A DNA stretch of 64,000 bases. It comes from Escherichia coli (GTDB taxonomy: Bacteria > Pseudomonadota > Gammaproteobacteria > Enterobacterales > Enterobacteriaceae). The notes under the pieces are model-generated. The model was not told where the DNA came from. It saw nothing but the letters and a program-made list of their open reading frames with translations, and did no database searches. Where the stretch lies: NCBI RefSeq assembly GCF_044324875.1, contig NZ_CP172185.1; one strand, written 5' to 3'. The position numbers and the translations under genes were made by a program. This document shows positions 18,022 to 63,508 of the stretch, piece by piece. Every line of letters starts with the position of its first letter. Positions within the stretch are counted from its first letter, which is position 1.

Positions 18022-18567
18022 GTGGACGATTTGACCGCACAAGCCCTGAAAGATTTTACTGCACGCTACTGCGATGCGTGGCATGAAGAGCATAAAAGCT
18101 GGCCGTTGAGTGAGGAACTGTACGGCGTTCCTTCACCGTGCATTATTTCAACCACCGAAGACGCCGTATACTGGCAACCCCAGCCGTTTACCGGGGAACA
18201 AAATGTAAACGCGGTTGAACGCGCTTTTGATATTGTGATACAACCCACAATTCATACCTTTTATACGACTCAGTTTGCCGGGGATATGCACGCGCAGTTT
18301 AGCGATATTAAACTGACATTGCTGCAAACCTGGAGTGAAGACGACTTCCGTCGGGTGCAGGAAAATCTGATTGGTCATCTGGTGACTCAGAAAAGGCTAA
18401 AATTGCCGCCCACGCTATTTATCGCGACGCTGGAAGAAGAGTTAGAGGTGATCTCGGTGTGTAATCTCTCCGGTGAAGTGTGTAAAGAGACGCTGGGAAC
18501 ACGTAAACGGGCGCATTTAGCCTCAAATCTTGCGGAATTCCTTAATCAACTTAAGCCTCTTCTGTAA
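18022..18567 (+). CDS. syd: SecY-interacting protein Syd
   Basis: 181-aa ORF; synteny upstream of csrB. Confidence 0.9.
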
Positions 18568-18586
18568 TCCAAATACCCCATCTGGT

Positions 18587-18604
18587 TGTGAGAGATCTCT
18601 TACA
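18587..18604. promoter_or_regulatory. UvrY (BarA-UvrY) binding inverted repeat upstream of csrB
   Basis: TGTGAGAGATCTCTTACA, a 16/18 palindrome about 175-190 bp upstream of the csrB 5' end. Confidence 0.75.
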
Positions 18605-18777
18605 GACTCTGTAGGAGATCGCCAGGAAATAAGCGAATACTTAAAAAGATAAGAATCGTTATTTTCATTTAAAATCAATATATTGCTTGTTAATCCTTAA
18701 CTTTCATATTAAATTTTCCTTAAGGCATTGTCTGTAAGCGCCTTGTAAGACTTCGCGAAAAAGACGATTCTATCTTC

Positions 18778-19143
18778 GTCGACAGGGAGTCAGACAACGA
18801 AGTGAACATCAGGATGATGACACTTCTGAAGGACACACCAGGATGGTGTTTCAGGGAAAGGCTTCTGGATGAAGCGAAGAGGATGACGCAGGACGCGTTA
18901 AAGGACACCTCCAGGATGGAGAATGAGAACCGGTCAGGATGATTCGGTGGGTCAGGAAGGCCAGGGACACTTCAGGATGAAGTATCACATCGGGGTGGTG
19001 TGAGCAGGAAGCAATAGTTCAGGATGAACGATTGGCCGCAAGGCCAGAGGAAAAGTTGTCAAGGATGAGCAGGGAGCAACAAAAGTAGCTGGAATGCTGC
19101 GAAACGAACCGGGAGCACTGTGAATACAGTGCTCCCTTTTTTT
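18778..19143 (+). ncRNA. csrB: CsrB, CsrA-sequestering sRNA
   Basis: Begins GTCGACAGGGAGTCAGACAACGAAG; about 20 CAGGA(U)G / GGA motifs across 366 nt; ends with GC hairpin GGGAGCACTGT-GAAT-ACAGTGCTCCC plus T-run (19110-19143); between syd and yqcC as in K-12. Confidence 0.9.
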
Positions 19144-19188
19144 ATTCCTGCTATTCTTCGCGGCAGTTTTTCTTATTGAGGTTGCTTT

Positions 19189-19518
19189 ATGACCACTCAT
19201 GACCGCGTTCGTCTCCAGTTGCAGGCGCTTGAAGCGTTACTGCGTGAACATCAGCACTGGCGAAACGATGAACCCCAGCCGCATCAATTTAATAGTACCC
19301 AACCGTTCTTTATGGACACCATGGAACCACTGGAGTGGTTGCAGTGGGTGCTGATCCCGCGAATGCACGATTTGTTAGAAAACAACCAGCCGTTACCGGG
19401 CGCTTTTGCCGTTGCTCCCTATTATGAAATGGCGCTGGCGACGGACCACCCGCAACGCGCGCTTATTCTGGCTGAGCTGGAAAAACTGGATGCTCTTTTT
19501 GCGGATGATGCGAGCTAA
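19189..19518 (+). CDS. yqcC: DUF446 protein YqcC
   Basis: 109-aa ORF; stop overlaps truC start (TAATG). Confidence 0.85.
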   Translation: MTTHDRVRLQLQALEALLREHQHWRNDEPQPHQFNSTQPFFMDTMEPLEWLQWVLIPRMHDLLENNQPLPGAFAVAPYYEMALATDHPQRALILAELEKLDALFADDAS

Positions 19519-25497: not shown

Positions 25498-28254
25498 TTA
25501 CCCGAGAATTTTGCTGGCTTCGCGCGCGACATTATCCATCTCGTCCAACAGTTCCAGCAGCTCCGGCTCCAAATCTTCTTCTTTAGTACCGCTACGTAGC
25601 TGTTGTTCGATCAGCTGGCAGAGATTCTTCATACGCGGCACACCGCTATAGCCGCAACTGCCATGCAGTTTATGAATCAAATCAACCAGGCCTTCCGGGT
25701 TTTCTCCAACCAGCTGTTCCTCAACTTTGTTGCGAACTTCAGGCAGGAAATCGAGTAACATTTGCAGCATATCGCGCGCTAAATCGGTTTTTCCTGCTGC
25801 CTGGCGTAGTGCCAGTTGCCAGTCGAGGGTCGCATTCGGGTTCACCACAATTTCGTTGACTTCGGGCGTCACGACGCGAGACGAAATACCGCTGCCAGGC
25901 TTGTAGCGCAACAACAAATTATGCAATCGCTCTTCTTCAATCGGTTTCGCCAGATAATCGCTCATCCCTGCGCCAAGCAGCTTCTCTTTTTGCCCGGCCA
26001 TTGCATGCGCCGTTACCGCGATAACTGGCGTTTGTTGCTGATGGGGGAGCTGGTGGATGAGTTCGCAGGCCCGAATGCCGTCCATGTCCGGCATTTGAAT
26101 ATCCATTAAGATCAAATCGAACGGCATCTGTTTCGCCCGTTCAACCGCCTGATGCCCGCTATCGCAAAGTTCCACATGTTGCACCATATCTTCCAGCAAT
26201 GCGCCGATAAGTTTCAGGTTAGCGGGGTTGTCATCAACCGCCATGACTGTCATTGCCAGCTTACTTTCATCGGTTACAGGCAAAAGCGTGTTTTGTTTGT
26301 GATGACAAAATTCCGTCAGGGCAGGTAACAGGCGCGTAGGTGTTAATGGTTTCAGCAGACACGCGCCGATACCATCTTGCTTAAGTTTTTCAGCATTGAC
26401 TTGTGCATGGCAAGGAAGTGCCAGCATCAGGAAATCGGTCATCGATACCGCTTTCGCTAATCGCTCATGTTGCATTGTTAGCGGCTCGCGGAAGGTCACC
26501 GCAATGCCTAATAACATCATGTCGTAATGCGCGGGAGGCAGCGCGGAGAACGTTGGGCTATAAACCACTTCCAGCGGCGTTTCACTTAAAATATCCAGCG
26601 TGCATTGCGCTGCTGCGGAGTTTGGTTCGACATAGGCCAGGCGCTTGCCGGCGAGGCACTGGGTGGATGGCCCTTCGATAATAATGTTCGGGTTCAGATC
26701 GAGATTAATGTGGAACCAGAAAGTTGAACCGCGATTCGGCTGGCTATGGAACGAAATATCGCCGCCCATTTCATTAACCAGTTTTTGTGTAATCACCAGC
26801 CCCAGCCCGGTGCCACCATGACGGCGGGAAATACTGGCATCAGCCTGTCGGAAGGCCTGGAATAAGCGCGATTGATCGCGTTCAGGAATACCAATGCCGG
26901 TATCCCGAATCTGCACTTCAATCTGCACTTTAGTATTACTCAGCGCACGTTTTTCTACCAGAATATCAATGTTGCCATTCTCGGTGAATTTAATTGCATT
27001 CCCTACCAGGTTAGTGATGATTTGCTGTAATCGCAGTGGGTCGCCAATTACGTTATCGGGCACGTCGCTCTTAATATTGAGCGTCAGTTCCAGCCCTTTA
27101 TCGTGAGAAGAATGTGCCAGCAGGGTAACGACTTCATCCAGCGTGCTGCGTAGTGGGAATGGAATACTTTCCAGAATCAGCTTACCTGCTTCCAGTTTCG
27201 AGAAGTCGAGAACATCATTAATAATTGCCAGCAAATTATTTGCCGAACGTTCAATCGTATTCAGGTGATCGCGCTGCGTTGGTGTTAATTCTGTTTTCAG
27301 CGTCAGGCGGGTAAAGCCAATAACACCATTCAGTGGTGTACGCAGCTCGTGTGACATATTTGCCAAAAACTCGGATTTAATACGCGCCGCTTCCTGGGCG
27401 CGCTTTTTCGCCAGATCCAACTCAACGTTCTGAATTTCCATCTGCTCCAGCGTTTCACGCAGATCGGACGTCGCCTGGTCGATATTGTGCTGCATCTCTT
27501 CGTGATAAGCAGCCAGCGACATTGCCATCGAGTTGATACCGTTTTTCAGCATATCCAGCTCGCCGAGCATAAATCCTTCCACCCGGCTGTCGAGTTGCCC
27601 GCGACGGATGCGGTCGACGGTATTCACCATGTTGCGAATCGGACCGGTTACATCGCGCATTAAGCGCCAGCCAAAAATAAGCGCAATACCGATACAAAAC
27701 AGCATCATCACGCTGGAAATAAAGATCTCTTTATATTGCTGCAAGCGAACCGATTTAAGATCCAGCTCCAGCGCAATATATCCCAGCATATTTTGACTAT
27801 TTTTGGCATCGCTACTGGGCGATTCGTCGGGGGAGTAACTCTCAGAAATAATCGGCGTGCGGAGGATCATAATATCGCCGTCACGAGTGACAGTGAGCTG
27901 GCGAGGAAACGGCACGTTGCTGCCGAGCTGCATTGATGAAGGATCAAGATGAAAATTGGAGGTGACAAAGAGTCGGTTATTTTCATCATAAACCGAAATC
28001 GCGCGAACAATATCGGAATGGCGACGATGCAGTACGCTTATTAACTGACCGATAGATTCGCGATTTTGCAGGCTCATGCCATATTCAGTAGAAACTGCAA
28101 GCGGCTCAATAATGCTGGCTCCGGCATCTTCCAGTTGACGCTGCAAGTCGTTATAGCGATGCACAACGAAAAAGATACTCAGCAATAAACCAATAAGGAC
28201 GGTCGGTGCCAGGATCAGAATCATCATGCGTGCGCGCAGGCTGTAGTTGGTCAT
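25498..28254 (-). CDS. barA: hybrid sensor histidine kinase BarA
   Basis: 918-aa ORF with HAMP, HisKA/HATPase, receiver and HPt domains. Confidence 0.95.
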
Positions 28255-57550: not shown

Positions 57551-57815
57551 AATATCGTACCGCTTAATAAACGTCTCTGTCTGAAAAGATGGGGGCGTTT
57601 TTATTTTGCGAGCAGCATTCCTGATTTTAAACGTGAACGCCGCTGGAAGAATTATCAAGTATAGAATGGCGTTGGGTGCTTGAGGCTGTCTGGCGTTAAG
57701 CATTCGCGAGGTTCCAGATGGACAAAAGCCCCAGGCGATATTTCTATCAACCTGAGGCCAGCGTTCGAACCTAAGCAATTCGAATGTTAGTCTCTTCTTT
57801 GCAGGGAGGCAAGAC

Positions 57816-57968
57816 ATGCTGACAAAATATGCCCTTGTGGCAATCATCGTACTGTGTTGTACAGTACTGGGATTCACGCTGATGGTAGGCGACTCGTTGT
57901 GTGAGTTGAGTATCAGAGAACGTGGTATGGAGTTTAAGGCAGTTCTCGCTTACGAATCGAAGAAGTAG
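57816..57968 (+). CDS. Hok/Gef-family type I toxin (50 aa), possibly the hokX/sokX locus
   Basis: [50 protein letters not shown]: one TM helix, conserved LCE...AYES Hok signature, GGGAGG RBS 6 bp upstream, GC hairpin 57974-57995 after the stop; missing from the ORF track because it is under 60 aa. Confidence 0.7.
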
Positions 57969-58319
57969 CCACCACGCGGGGGTAAAACCCCGCGTATTGA
58001 ATTGTGATGGTTTGGTCTCCTGCACCCTTTTTTAATTTATATTGTTTATGTGAATATTATGCCTATGTTTATTATTCATATATATTACGGATGAAAATTA
58101 TTTGATTATTCATAATGTGCAAAATGGCATCTGAATCGATCGCAGTTTGGCATTCGAATCGATCATGATTTGGCATCCATCTCCGATCACAGTTTGGCAT
58201 CACAATCGATCACGATTTGGCATGCTTCCGATCATTGATTGGCATCCTGCCAGTCACTCCGGGAATTAACTCTTTTCACCACAGTCTCCATTGCCGTGTT
58301 TAAACCAGTGGAGACGTCA

Positions 58320-59885
58320 ATGTCCAGAAAGAGAAAATCCAGGAGCACTATGGAAACCTGTTTTAAGATCCTTCAGCTCAAGTTCGACAAGAAGCTGACT
58401 AACCGTTGTATCGGACTGACGTTACACATCAGCGCCTCAACCGTTTTTGAGGTTCTTGCCCGCTTCAAAGCCTCTTCTCTGTCATGGCCATTACCTGCTG
58501 ATATATCCCATGACACGCTGGAGAAACTCATTTTTCCGCCCAAAGACACCTTTGCATCAGAGCTTGTAATGCCTGACATGTTGTACTTCGATACGGAAAT
58601 GAGAAAACCAGGTGTGACGCGGCAACTGTTGTGGATGGAATACAAGGCACAGGCGGGTAACAAAGCGATGGGATACTCGCACTTCTGCCGTTGCTACCGG
58701 GAGTGGAAAAAAACGCGACGTCTCTCCATGCGCCAGGAGCATCGTGCCGGCGAAAAGCTTTTTATCGACTTCTGTGGTCCTACGGTTCCTGTTATTAATC
58801 CGGACACCGGTGAGATACGCCGCGTGGCAATCTTCGTGGCCGTAATGGGGGCGTCCAACTATACCTACGTTGAAGCGTGCGAAGGTCAGGACATGATGTC
58901 ATGGTTAAATGCCCACAGCCGTTGCCTGACCTTCCTGGGCGGCGTACCGAAGCTGCTCATCCCCGATAACCTCAGAAGCGCAGTGAAAAAGGCCGATCGA
59001 TATGAGCCTGTCATCAACGACAGTTATCAGGCACTGGCTGAGCACTATGGCACGGTTATCATCCCGGCCCGACCACGCAAACCTAAAGATAAACCAAAAG
59101 CAGAAAACGGCGTCCTCATCGTTGAACGATGGCTTCTTGCCCGCATCCGTAATGAAACCTTCCACACGCTCAGGGCGCTGAATGCGCGCCTTAGGGAGTT
59201 ACTGACAGACATGAATAACCGGCCAATGAAGGGGTACGGCAATCAAACCCGTGCAGAACGCTTCCGCATACTGGATGCGCCAGCACTCTCTCCGCTGCCT
59301 CTGGCACCTTATGAATACACGGAATACAAAGCTGTGAAGGTTGGCCCTGACTACCACGTTGAATATGCCCGTCACTGGTACTCCGTTCCACACGAACTGG
59401 TCGGTCAGCGTCTGTCACTGAAGGCGGGGCAGTCGGTGGTACAGCTCTGGCACAAGGGGCAGTGTGTGGCGCAACATCCGCGCAGCACACATGAATATAA
59501 ACACACAACCAATCCGCTTCACATGCCAGAGCGCCACCGGCAGCACGGGACATGGACACCGGAACGCCTGATCGAGCAGGGAAAACGTACGGGCCCGTCC
59601 ACAGGCCGGGTGGTTGAATCCATGCTGAAGGCAAAACCCCATCCGGAACTGGCTTATCGTGCAGTTCTGGGGCTGCTGGCACTTCAGAAAAAATACGGCC
59701 CGGAACGGCTGGAAAAGGCCTGTTACGTTGCCCTGCACTATAACGCCCCTGACAGACGCTTTATCGACAATCTGCTGCGTCACCATCGGGAGAACCTGGA
59801 GCTTCCATTATCCCGCCAGGGCGAACAACATCCGGCATATGCTTCAGAGCATGAAAACCTGCGTGGTCCGGGCTACTACCACTGA
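58320..59885 (+). CDS. istA: IS21-family transposase IstA
   Basis: N-terminal HTH and DDE integrase core; start at MSRKRKSRS (58320) with GGAG RBS preferred over the ORF-track start 58239. Confidence 0.8.
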   Translation: MSRKRKSRSTMETCFKILQLKFDKKLTNRCIGLTLHISASTVFEVLARFKASSLSWPLPADISHDTLEKLIFPPKDTFASELVMPDMLYFDTEMRKPGVTRQLLWMEYKAQAGNKAMGYSHFCRCYREWKKTRRLSMRQEHRAGEKLFIDFCGPTVPVINPDTGEIRRVAIFVAVMGASNYTYVEACEGQDMMSWLNAHSRCLTFLGGVPKLLIPDNLRSAVKKADRYEPVINDSYQALAEHYGTVIIPARPRKPKDKPKAENGVLIVERWLLARIRNETFHTLRALNARLRELLTDMNNRPMKGYGNQTRAERFRILDAPALSPLPLAPYEYTEYKAVKVGPDYHVEYARHWYSVPHELVGQRLSLKAGQSVVQLWHKGQCVAQHPRSTHEYKHTTNPLHMPERHRQHGTWTPERLIEQGKRTGPSTGRVVESMLKAKPHPELAYRAVLGLLALQKKYGPERLEKACYVALHYNAPDRRFIDNLLRHHRENLELPLSRQGEQHPAYASEHENLRGPGYYH

Positions 59886-59901
59886 CAGAAGGAACAACAG
59901 T

Positions 59902-60657
59902 ATGAGTGATAACCTGTTAAACAAACTGACCCAACTGAAACTCCCGGCGATGGCCGGGAGCCTGATACGGCAGCGGGAAACGCCTCAGACCTACGACGAA
60001 CTGTCGTTCGAGGAAAGGCTGACGCTGCTGGTTGATGACGAGCTTCTGAGCAGGGAAAACAGCCGTGTGGCACGGTTGAGAAAAAATGCCGGCCTGAAAT
60101 ACCAGGCAACACCGGAAGGGCTGCGCTATCCGGCCTCAAGAGGTCTGCGGGCTGAACAGATGAGAGAACTGCTGAACGGCCACTACATAACCCACAGGAA
60201 AAACCTGCTGATAACCGGTCCGACAGGATGTGGCAAGAGCTGGATAGCCAATGCGCTGGGCGAACAGGCATGTCGACAGAAACACAGCGTCCGGTACTGT
60301 AGAACCGGGCGATTACTGGAACAACTGGCTCAGGGACGTGTTGATGGCAGCTGGCTGAAATATCTGAAACAGTTGCAAAAAATACAGGTTCTAATCCTGG
60401 ACGATCTGGGGCTGGAACAGTTAAGTAACGCCCAGTGTAATGACCTTCTGGAGCTCATAGAGGATCGTTACGGACAAAGCAGCACGATAGTGGTAAGCCA
60501 GTTCCCGGTAGATAAATGGCATGGTCTGATGGAGAACCCAACAACAGCAGATGCCATCCTGGACAGACTGGTACATAACTCACACCGAGTGGTCCTTCAG
60601 GGAGAGTCACTGAGGAAAAATCCCCCGGTAGTGGAAAGCAGCGAAAAAACGCGTTAA
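59902..60657 (+). CDS. istB: IS21-family ATP-binding helper IstB
   Basis: 251-aa form MSDNLLNKL... with Walker A GPTGCGKSW and Walker B LILDDLG; ORF-track start 59659 overlaps istA. Confidence 0.85.
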   Translation: MSDNLLNKLTQLKLPAMAGSLIRQRETPQTYDELSFEERLTLLVDDELLSRENSRVARLRKNAGLKYQATPEGLRYPASRGLRAEQMRELLNGHYITHRKNLLITGPTGCGKSWIANALGEQACRQKHSVRYCRTGRLLEQLAQGRVDGSWLKYLKQLQKIQVLILDDLGLEQLSNAQCNDLLELIEDRYGQSSTIVVSQFPVDKWHGLMENPTTADAILDRLVHNSHRVVLQGESLRKNPPVVESSEKTR

Positions 60658-60808: not shown

Positions 60809-63508
60809 ATGCGTAAATATCCTTTAAGTTTACTGAAGGATAAAAATATTGTGACTTTTTTTGATTTCTGGGGAAAAACCCGACGCGGCGAGAAAGACGG
60901 GGGCGACGACTATCACCTTCTTTGCTGGCATTCGCTGGATGTAGCCGCGATGGGCTATTTAATGGTTAAAAGCAATTGCTTCGGGCTGACTGACTATTTT
61001 CGTCAACTAGGTTTCGCTGATACGGAGCAGGCAGCACAATTTTTCGCCTGGCTATTGTGCTGGCACGATACTGGAAAATTTGCCCGCTCTTTTCAGCAAC
61101 TTTACCTGCACCCACAACTCAAGGTTCCGGAAGGCGCAAGAAAGAATTACGAAAAGATCTCTCATTCAACGCTGGGCTACTGGCTGTGGCATCATTATTT
61201 AAGTGAATACGAAGAATTGCTTCCTTCATCTTCACTCTCTCCGCGCAAACTTAAACGGGTGATGGAGATGTGGATGCCCATAACTACCGGGCATCATGGT
61301 CGCCCGCCTGACCGTATTGATGAACTGGATAATTTTCTGCCTGAAGACAAAGCTGCCGCGCGAGATTTTCTTCTTGAAATCAAACCACTGTTTCCGCTCA
61401 TAGAGATCCCCGCATTCTGGGATGATGATGAGGGCATTGAACTTATAAAACACCTTTCCTGGTATATCTCTGCAACCGTCGTGCTCGCAGACTGGACGGG
61501 TTCGTCAACGCGATTTTTTCCACGCGTCGCACACCCAATGGATATTAAAGGTTACTGGCAGAAAACTTTAGTTCAGGCTCAAAACGCCTTAACCGTCTTT
61601 CCTCTAAAAGCAAAAGTCGCGCCTTTCACCGGAATTAATACGCTGTTTCCTTTTATTGAGAATCCGACACCGTTACAGCAAAAGGTGCTGGATCTGGATA
61701 TCAGCCAGCCAGGGCCACAGTTATTTATTCTGGAAGATGTGACTGGCGCAGGTAAAACGGAAGCGGCGCTTATCCTGGCGCACAGGTTGATGGCTGCGGG
61801 TAAAGCGCAGGGTTTGTTTTTTGGCCTGCCAACAATGGCAACGGCCAATGCCATGTACGATCGACTGGTCAAAACCTGGCTTGCTTTCTATTCGCCAGAG
61901 TCCCGCCCCAGCCTGGTGCTGGCACACAGTGCCCGAACATTAATGGACCGCTTTAATGAATCACTCTGGTCCGGTGATTTAGTCGGGTCAGAAGAACCGG
62001 ATGAACAAACGTTCAGTCAGGGATGTGCGGCCTGGTTTGCCGACAGTAACAAGAAGGCGCTACTGGCTGAAATTGGCGTCGGCACGCTGGATCAGGCGAT
62101 GATGGCTGTGATGCCGTTCAAACATAATAATCTGCGGCTTCTGGGACTGAGTAACAAAATCCTGCTGGCTGATGAGATCCATGCCTGTGACGCTTACATG
62201 TCATGCATTCTTGAAGGGCTGATCGAGCGGCAGGCGCGTGGCGGAAACAGCGTCATTTTGCTTTCTGCCACGTTATCTCAACAGCAGTGCGACAAACTCG
62301 TTGCTGCCTTTGCGCGTGGTACAGAGGGCCAGCAAGAAGCTCCGTTCCTGGAAAAGGATGATTACCCCTGGCTGACGCACGTTACGAAATCCGATGTGCA
62401 TTCACACCGGGTAGCGACGCGCAAAGACGTTGAGCGTAGCGTGAGCGTGGGTTGGCTTCATAGCGAACAAGAATGTATTGCGCGTATCGAATCGGCAGTA
62501 AGTCAGGGGAAATGCATCGCCTGGATCCGGAATTCTGTCGATGACGCTATTAAGGTTTATCGTCAGTTGCTTGCCCGCGGCGTCATTCCTGCTTCCAGCC
62601 TTTCTCTGTTTCATAGCCGCTTTGCTTTTAGCGATCGCCAGCGAATTGAAACGGAAACGCTGGCACGCTTCGGTAAAGAAGATAGCTCACAGCGTGCCGG
62701 AAAAGTCCTCATTTGTACTCAGGTCTTAGAGTCGAGCGTTGATTGCGATATGGACGAAATGATTTCCGACCTGGCCCCTGTTGATTTGCTGATCCAGCGA
62801 GCGGGGCGATTACAGCGGCATATCCGCGATATTAATGGTCAGTTAAAGCGTGACGGAAAAGACGAGCGTTCCCCTCCTGAATTGCTGATTCTGGCCCCCG
62901 TCTGGGACGACGCTCCAGGTGACGAATGGTTCGGCAGTGCCATGCGTAACAGTGCATATGTCTATCCCGATCATGGACGAATCTGGCTGACGCAGCGTGT
63001 ACTGCGTGAGCAAGGCGCTATTCAAATGCCACACGCAGCCCGCCTTCTTATTGAATCAGTCTACGGTGAGGACGTGGTAATGCCGGAAGGATTTGCCCGC
63101 AGCGAGCAGGAGCAAGTGGGCAAATATTACTGCGATCGCGCAATGGCTAAAAAGTTTGTGCTGAACTTCAGGCCTGGCTATGCCGCCAATATCAACGATT
63201 ACCTTCCGGAAAAGCTGTCGACACGTCTGGCGGAGGAGTCTGTTTCCCTGTGGCTGGCTACCTGTATTGCCAGTGTGGTGAAGCCTTATGCCAACGGTGC
63301 TCACGCATGGGAAATGAGCGTTGTCAGAGTGCGTCGAAGCTGGTGGAAAAAACATCGGGATGAGTTTTCTTTACTGGAAGGGGAAGCGTTCAGGCAGTGG
63401 TGCATTGAACAGCGGAAAGATCCGGAGATGGCAAACGTGATTTTAGTTACCGATGACGAAAGTTGCGGGTATTCGGCTATGGAAGGATTGACTGGCAAGG
63501 TTGGTTGA
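60809..63508 (+). CDS. cas3: CRISPR-associated helicase/nuclease Cas3 (type I-E, non-K-12 sequence variant)
   Basis: 899-aa ORF: N-terminal HD domain (HSLDVAAMGYL, CWHDTGK), DEAD/DEAH helicase (Walker A GAGKTEA, LADEIHA); clearly diverged from the K-12 Cas3 sequence I recall. Confidence 0.85.
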   Translation: MRKYPLSLLKDKNIVTFFDFWGKTRRGEKDGGDDYHLLCWHSLDVAAMGYLMVKSNCFGLTDYFRQLGFADTEQAAQFFAWLLCWHDTGKFARSFQQLYLHPQLKVPEGARKNYEKISHSTLGYWLWHHYLSEYEELLPSSSLSPRKLKRVMEMWMPITTGHHGRPPDRIDELDNFLPEDKAAARDFLLEIKPLFPLIEIPAFWDDDEGIELIKHLSWYISATVVLADWTGSSTRFFPRVAHPMDIKGYWQKTLVQAQNALTVFPLKAKVAPFTGINTLFPFIENPTPLQQKVLDLDISQPGPQLFILEDVTGAGKTEAALILAHRLMAAGKAQGLFFGLPTMATANAMYDRLVKTWLAFYSPESRPSLVLAHSARTLMDRFNESLWSGDLVGSEEPDEQTFSQGCAAWFADSNKKALLAEIGVGTLDQAMMAVMPFKHNNLRLLGLSNKILLADEIHACDAYMSCILEGLIERQARGGNSVILLSATLSQQQCDKLVAAFARGTEGQQEAPFLEKDDYPWLTHVTKSDVHSHRVATRKDVERSVSVGWLHSEQECIARIESAVSQGKCIAWIRNSVDDAIKVYRQLLARGVIPASSLSLFHSRFAFSDRQRIETETLARFGKEDSSQRAGKVLICTQVLESSVDCDMDEMISDLAPVDLLIQRAGRLQRHIRDINGQLKRDGKDERSPPELLILAPVWDDAPGDEWFGSAMRNSAYVYPDHGRIWLTQRVLREQGAIQMPHAARLLIESVYGEDVVMPEGFARSEQEQVGKYYCDRAMAKKFVLNFRPGYAANINDYLPEKLSTRLAEESVSLWLATCIASVVKPYANGAHAWEMSVVRVRRSWWKKHRDEFSLLEGEAFRQWCIEQRKDPEMANVILVTDDESCGYSAMEGLTGKVG

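Follow-up and report, generated by a model that had tools for sequence, protein, structure and literature searches.

The window analyzed here, a stretch of 64,000 nucleotides (64 kb) of Escherichia coli DNA (contig NZ_CP172185.1), carries the small RNA gene csrB between syd and yqcC, and, several kilobases downstream, the gene encoding the sensor kinase BarA. The features that we consider are the following (coordinates are those of the window; negative positions are counted from the csrB 5' end, +1, at 18778):

18022-18567, plus strand: syd, upstream flanking gene (NF003439, 286 bits; the RefSeq annotation at the syntenic locus agrees)
18587-18604, no strand assigned: UvrY-P site, the 18-bp near-palindrome TGTGAGAGATCTCTTACA, centred at -183/-182
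18610-18618, plus strand: partial extra half-site TGTAGGAGA, 5 bp downstream of the inverted repeat, read from the sequence
18673-18685, plus strand: IHF consensus site AATCAATATATTG (WATCAANNNNTTR), -105 to -93, a pattern match
18720-18908, minus strand: spurious antisense ORF of 62 aa (ORF finder), extending 58 nt upstream of +1
18743-18748, plus strand: putative -35 hexamer TTGTAA (4 of 6 consensus positions), placed relative to the K-12 5' end
18766-18771, plus strand: putative -10 hexamer GATTCT (3 of 6), after a 17-bp spacer
18778-19146, plus strand: csrB sRNA, 369 nt with 22 GGA motifs (RF00018), collinear with K-12 b4408 with two substitutions
18802-18942, plus strand: spurious sense ORF of 46 aa with a GTG start (ORF finder), inside csrB
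18985-19200, minus strand: spurious antisense ORF of 71 aa (ORF finder), running 54 nt past the csrB 3' end and overlapping the start of yqcC
19073-19093, plus strand: GGA sites 20 (19073) and 21 (19091), numbered according to PMC5027483
19104-19108, plus strand: residues A327 and A331 of the RNase E "necessary cleavage site", in an unstructured segment ahead of the terminator
19111-19143, plus strand: intrinsic terminator, an 11-bp stem GGGAGCACTGT/ACAGTGCTCCC with a 4-nt loop and a T7 run
19189-19518, plus strand: yqcC, downstream flanking gene (RefSeq and K-12 annotation of the syntenic locus)
25498-28254, minus strand: barA, 918 aa (NF008318 BarA equivalog, 1623.9 bits, residues 1-917)

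A scan of the whole window against Rfam returned a match to the CsrB/RsmB family RF00018 at 18787-19146 on the plus strand, with a score of 382.9 bits (E = 2.2e-111) against a gathering score of 71, spanning model positions 1-356 of 356. Alignment with K-12 placed the curated 369-nt csrB (b4408; NC_000913.3, 2924156-2924524, between syd and yqcC) at 18778-19146. The initial annotation had called this region a csrB gene of 366 nt with a far-upstream UvrY site; the covariance-model search confirmed the identity and the RNA gene is indeed present, but its length is 369 nt. The shorter figure corresponds to 18778-19143, ending at the last T of the T7 run, and the 3-nt difference lies within a U-tail whose end is not sharply defined. 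The yqcC gene had no NCBIfam match and was identified from the way the syntenic locus is annotated in RefSeq and in K-12. The syd-csrB-yqcC position and the near-identity to b4408 mark the RNA gene as the csrB orthologue, as opposed to csrC. Furthermore, the gene displays the traits of the CsrB/RsmB family: a match to the model, displayed GGA motifs, a rho-independent terminator and no conserved reading frame. We have hardly any doubt that this is the chromosomal csrB of E. coli, complete and, as judged from its sequence, apparently functional. It represents biology that is already known, with no novel feature.

To place the locus among its relatives, we relied on a single DNA-pattern scan of species-representative genomes, using a motif with 19 specified bases taken from the 3' part of csrB. 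The scan returned 120 loci, about 110 of them from Enterobacterales. The ten non-enterobacterial matches (Algoriphagus, Anaerolineae, Obscuribacterales, Acidobacteria, Paenibacillus, Bathyarchaeota and others) all lacked the T-run that marks the terminator and were excluded as chance matches or contaminants.

Upstream of csrB, TGTGAGAGATCTCTTACA was the sole match in the window when up to three mismatches were allowed (0.01 expected), and it differs from its own reverse complement at only 2 of 18 positions. In both sequence and position (-183/-182) it agrees with the UvrY-P site that Zere et al. (2015, PMC4682653) mapped at E. coli csrB using ChIP-exo and DNase I footprinting. The near-palindromic UvrY site initially noted is therefore the published one, and it is identical in K-12. 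Among the 98 orthologous csrB copies with enough flanking sequence, all carry an upstream box with no more than four mismatches, 56 of them an exact one, as determined without any filter for the box; in random 270-nt windows, the best match never had fewer than six mismatches. Conservation of the box in our alignment of 82 sequences is circular, because a box-like motif was required for inclusion in it.

The extra half-site TGTAGGAGA is conserved across these 82 aligned sequences, and according to Zere et al. (PMC4682653) its conservation in E. coli and Salmonella is partial. The IHF consensus sits between the box and the promoter, and its TCAA and TT elements are conserved across species; the nearby differences between the window and K-12 fall only on the NNNN positions or just outside the consensus. 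The text of Zere et al. (PMC4682653) reports a putative IHF site between two cross-linking sites, as well as IHF dependence of csrB expression, and the consensus in the window probably corresponds to that putative site.

Two relatives showed unusual arrangements in this region. Enterobacillus tribolii DSM 103736 carries three tandem csrB copies on the minus strand of one locus (L076, 7700-9299), as follows:

L076 7700-8078, minus strand: E. tribolii csrB copy, RF00018
L076 8311-8690, minus strand: E. tribolii csrB copy, RF00018
L076 8922-9299, minus strand: E. tribolii csrB copy, RF00018

These copies scored 232-239 bits. A separate inverted repeat of the UvrY type accompanies each of them, about 490 nt upstream of the anchor motif. 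In Erwinia piriflorinigrans CFBP 5888 (L107), the UvrY-type box lies at -552 from the 3' anchor motif, about 80-140 nt further than in other Erwiniaceae, in which it is found at about -385 to -470. The Rfam match at this locus nevertheless covers only 342 nt, which suggests that the promoter region or the 5' part of the RNA contains an insertion; the alignment-projected values of 450 nt and 33 GGA are therefore unreliable.

A scan of 18400-19400 for the sigma-70 consensus found no site at a threshold of 9 of 12 positions. The hexamers that we assigned to the csrB promoter by position and conservation agree with the consensus at 7 of 12 positions, and the text of Zere et al. (PMC4682653) gives no explicit hexamers. 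Within the promoter stretch, conservation of 95% or better among the 82 sequences is confined to the TTGT of the -35 hexamer, the A at -11 (18767) and the T at -7 (18771), as would be expected if the promoter is real but weak and dependent on an activator. The consensus scan thus appears to miss the core promoter because it is too weak, as expected for a promoter of this type. When compared with K-12, the -35/-10 region and +1, together with the whole interval from -60 to +1, proved identical. We also observed an inverted repeat, GACGA-TTCTATCT-TCGTC, at 18763-18780, covering the csrB -10 region to +3; it was scored as a minus-strand terminator-like site and is poorly conserved except at the -10 positions.

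The RNA itself is strongly enriched in the motif bound by CsrA. Its 369 nt contain 22 GGA, compared with a mean of 5.1 (sd 2.6) for windows of the same size over the 64 kb, where no plus-strand window outside the csrB region had more than 15 and no minus-strand window more than 12; AGGA occurs 14 times, compared with a mean of 1.0. In the 17-helix structure described below, 14 of the GGA motifs lie in hairpin loops, five in unpaired linkers and three in stems, including site 22 in the terminator. The GGA-richness initially claimed is confirmed. The count and order agree with the 22 GGA sites of the csrB literature (Vakulskas et al. 2016, PMC5027483), and our numbering reproduces the counts given there of seven sites (16-22) in the +226 fragment and five in the +263 fragment. 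In that study, CsrA at GGA sites 20 and 21 was found to shield the RNase E cleavage site, and A327 and A331 were implicated in the cleavage (PMC5027483). In the window, +327 and +331 correspond to 19104 and 19108, both positions read A, and the segment containing them, AAACGAACCGGG, is nearly invariant across species.

The csrB RNA has a predicted minimum free energy of -119.9 kcal/mol, which corresponds to z = -4.3 when compared with 100 dinucleotide shuffles. A terminator scan found the plus-strand intrinsic terminator that had been proposed, with 11 pairs (seven of them G-C) at 19111-19136 followed by TTTTTTT. This hairpin agrees with the Rfam consensus hairpin and shows compensatory changes in three pairs.

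For the window together with 46 diverse orthologues, the RNAalifold consensus consists of short hairpins with GGA in their loops, and 32 of its 73 pairs show compensatory double changes. We then counted a named structure of 17 helices, which includes an added 5' hairpin and the CUUC-AGGAU-GAAG hairpin, in the 47 enterobacterial sequences. Standard pairs occupy 96.1% of the cells in this structure, compared with 34-52% in slid controls; 37 pairs are changed on both sides (10-16 in the controls); and the covariation score is 0.232 (0.03-0.06 in the controls). None of 500 shuffles reached the observed values. Helix 15 overlaps the search pattern, and its invariance is therefore built in and uninformative.

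It might be argued that 18720-18908, 18985-19200 or 18802-18942 is translated into a small protein, singly or in combination, instead of or besides an RNA being made here. The ORFs do exist (62, 71 and 46 aa), and two of them have been deposited by gene callers as "hypothetical protein" entries: the 71-aa ORF (18988-19200) under accessions such as KEJ09146.1, within a cluster of 636 members, and the 46-aa sense ORF (18802-18939) as ECP_2774 / ABG70763.1. An exact look-up of the remaining one (18723-18908) in the protein collection did not find it. However, a search of the two flagged antisense ORFs and the sense ORF against NCBIfam gave no match for any of the three, and they fare poorly across the 81 orthologous loci. 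The ORF at 18720-18908 is intact in three loci, all Escherichia, and has in-frame stops in E. albertii, Citrobacter and Salmonella; that at 18985-19200 is intact in none, with stops already within the genus Escherichia. The sense ORF is intact solely in four Escherichia loci and carries frameshifts in both Citrobacter and Salmonella; at 93-99% identity, an ORF would be expected to stay intact within Escherichia. A further antisense ORF behaves alike, so that all four overlapping ORFs are broken outside Escherichia, and Citrobacter and Salmonella break them despite 80-90% DNA identity. Moreover, conservation tracks the RNA hairpins, with their compensatory changes, rather than codons. Given these stops and frameshifts in orthologues, we rejected the coding hypothesis for all four ORFs and consider a protein product here exceedingly improbable. 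The initial annotation had likewise dismissed 18720-18908 and 18985-19200 as artefacts inside the RNA, which is correct as to their being artefacts but only partly so as to their location, since both lie on the minus strand and each overruns the RNA.

The accompanying warning that the RNA must not be mis-annotated as coding is well founded. In addition to the deposited "hypothetical protein" entries, we found that none of the 30 genomes sampled, re-sequenced MG1655 derivatives among them, has a RefSeq/PGAP feature at csrB, and that the RefSeq record of the closest strain, M7424, has no csrB feature either. Among the records compared, only the curated NC_000913.3 annotates the csrB ncRNA. The significance of the locus is solely one of annotation quality. 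In enteric bacteria, csrB is central to the regulation of carbon metabolism, biofilm formation, motility and virulence, and ORFs overlapping it have been deposited by gene callers as "hypothetical proteins" by the hundreds. Recognizing the gene avoids such false protein calls and leaves the BarA-UvrY-CsrB circuit of this strain in view, without adding new biology.

The window and K-12 share the 369-nt length of csrB, its flanks, the UvrY box, the half-site, the IHF consensus, the promoter region, the 22 GGA sites, the RNase E residues and the terminator. The first of the two substitutions within the RNA, at 18829 (A in the window, C in K-12), changes GGA site 3 from CAGGA to AAGGA, which is the Rfam consensus; the second, at 19117 (A in the window, G in K-12), replaces a G.U pair of the terminator with an A-U pair. 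Outside the RNA, five substitutions lie in the A/T-rich spacer that separates the box from the promoter, and one lies downstream of the terminator. At one spacer position, 18712 (-66), the window has T, while K-12 and the closest strain have G, and this T was absent from the 5,353 matching complete E. coli genomes. The stretch is poorly conserved, and the T is either a SNP private to this sequence or a sequencing error; in the former case, it is probably neutral.

In Salmonella enterica, the SirA box of csrB is the same 18-bp sequence at the same distance. The Salmonella locus (L059) has the same flanking genes and 22 GGA and scores 367 bits on Rfam; its RNA is about 86% identical, measures 363 nt by alignment, and has the E. 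coli ORFs broken. The paralogue csrC lies at a different locus and has fewer sites than csrB. Like csrB, csrC and the RNAs RsmB, RsmZ and RsmY are activated by GacA/UvrY, contain many GGA hairpins and sequester CsrA/RsmA on the same principle (PMC7652899); the csrC box, TGTGAGACATTGCCGATA, is less symmetric than that of csrB, and csrC has no apparent IHF site (PMC4682653). Since paralogues exist in this family, and related models are grouped in the Rfam clan CL00106, a match to RF00018 might in principle reflect a different or decayed member, either csrC or an inactive copy, rather than a functional csrB; we see next to no chance of this, as the RNA shares 99.5% identity with K-12 csrB and lies in the syd-csrB-yqcC context, the box is TGTGAGAGATCTCTTACA and not the csrC version, the 22 GGA sites, the terminator and the conserved promoter positions are all intact, and the gene sequence is the same as in many complete genomes.

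Using megablast, we detected the chromosomal csrB locus (18500-19250) in 5,425 of 5,426 complete E. coli genomes, and the csrB RNA of the window is 100% identical to that of many of them. A few records deviate: csrB is absent from a single genome and less than 80% covered in two others, and one csrB match lies on a record labelled as a plasmid. In NZ_CM170101.1, for example, the match begins at csrB nt 92 and the record contains a second place, suggesting an insertion.

The order and orientation of syd-csrB-yqcC are kept in all 106 loci that have enough downstream flank, which come from Enterobacteriaceae, Erwiniaceae and Hafniaceae. The start of yqcC usually lies 40-135 nt past the csrB terminator, with insertions of 0.35-1.5 kb in a few loci. 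The tight, co-oriented arrangement syd-csrB-yqcC(-truC-yqcA) might reflect functional coupling, in which read-through of the terminator or shared control would link the expression of yqcC, truC and yqcA to BarA-UvrY signalling. We consider such coupling unlikely. Between the csrB terminator and the yqcC ATG (19189), the window contains an extended -10-like motif, TGCTATTCT, at 19149-19157, and the pattern TGnTATnCT occurs within 90 nt past the csrB terminator in 84 of 96 enterobacterial loci, compared with about 5% of random 90-nt windows. This conserved motif probably marks a promoter of yqcC's own, which argues that the linkage of csrB and yqcC may be simple synteny. A literature search on csrB-yqcC coupling yielded only tables of flanking genes.

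The sensor kinase gene said to lie in the same window is there, as an intact 918-aa gene well above the NF008318 cut-off of 890. It is convergent with csrB, and the 6,352 bp (6.35 kb) between the csrB 3' end and barA hold yqcC, truC, yqcA and gudPXD, in the same order as in K-12 and strain M7424. Neither uvrY nor csrA lies within the 64-kb window; on the basis of the K-12 map, both are presumably located elsewhere on the chromosome.

The covariance match, the count of GGA hairpins and the comparison of promoter and box with K-12 all support interpreting the locus as csrB, and it is the K-12 literature that suggests how it would act with respect to binding, activation, sequestration and decay. 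In K-12, UvrY-P, helped by IHF, activates csrB transcription (PMC4682653), and the many high-affinity GGA sites of csrB sequester CsrA dimers away from mRNAs (PMC7652899). Binding and sequestration of CsrA are known for the K-12 RNA, which is 99.5% identical to that of the window (PMC7652899, PMC5027483), as is a block by CsrA at sites 20/21 that CsrD relieves with EIIA-Glc (PMC7652899, PMC5027483).

If the locus of the window behaves in the same way, BarA would phosphorylate UvrY, and UvrY-P would bind the 18-bp inverted repeat centred at -183/-182; IHF would bend the intervening A/T-rich DNA, allowing the distant activator to act on a weak sigma-70 promoter. Transcription would start at G18778 and stop at the terminator (19111-19143), yielding the 369-nt untranslated RNA, whose 22 GGA, mostly in short hairpin loops or single-stranded linkers, would bind several CsrA dimers, and csrB would thereby titrate CsrA off its mRNA targets. 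Decay would begin with RNase E cleavage at A327/A331, just ahead of the terminator; CsrA on GGA sites 20 and 21 would block this cleavage, and CsrD plus unphosphorylated EIIA-Glc would overcome the block.

In addition to CsrB, only two Rfam families, GcvB and sok, scored above threshold in the window. The GcvB sRNA lies at 353-558 on the minus strand (RF00022, 199 bits) and is full length. The sok antitoxin RNA, at 57674-57831 on the plus strand (RF01794, 111.7 bits), is followed by an IS21-family element with an istA-like gene (58239-59885) and an istB-like gene (59659-60657), and then by cas3 (60809-63508), which at 420.7 bits did not reach the Cas3 equivalog cut-off of 569 bits. In K-12, sokX presumably adjoins cas3 directly; given that arrangement, the IS21-family element between sok and cas3 looks like an insertion.
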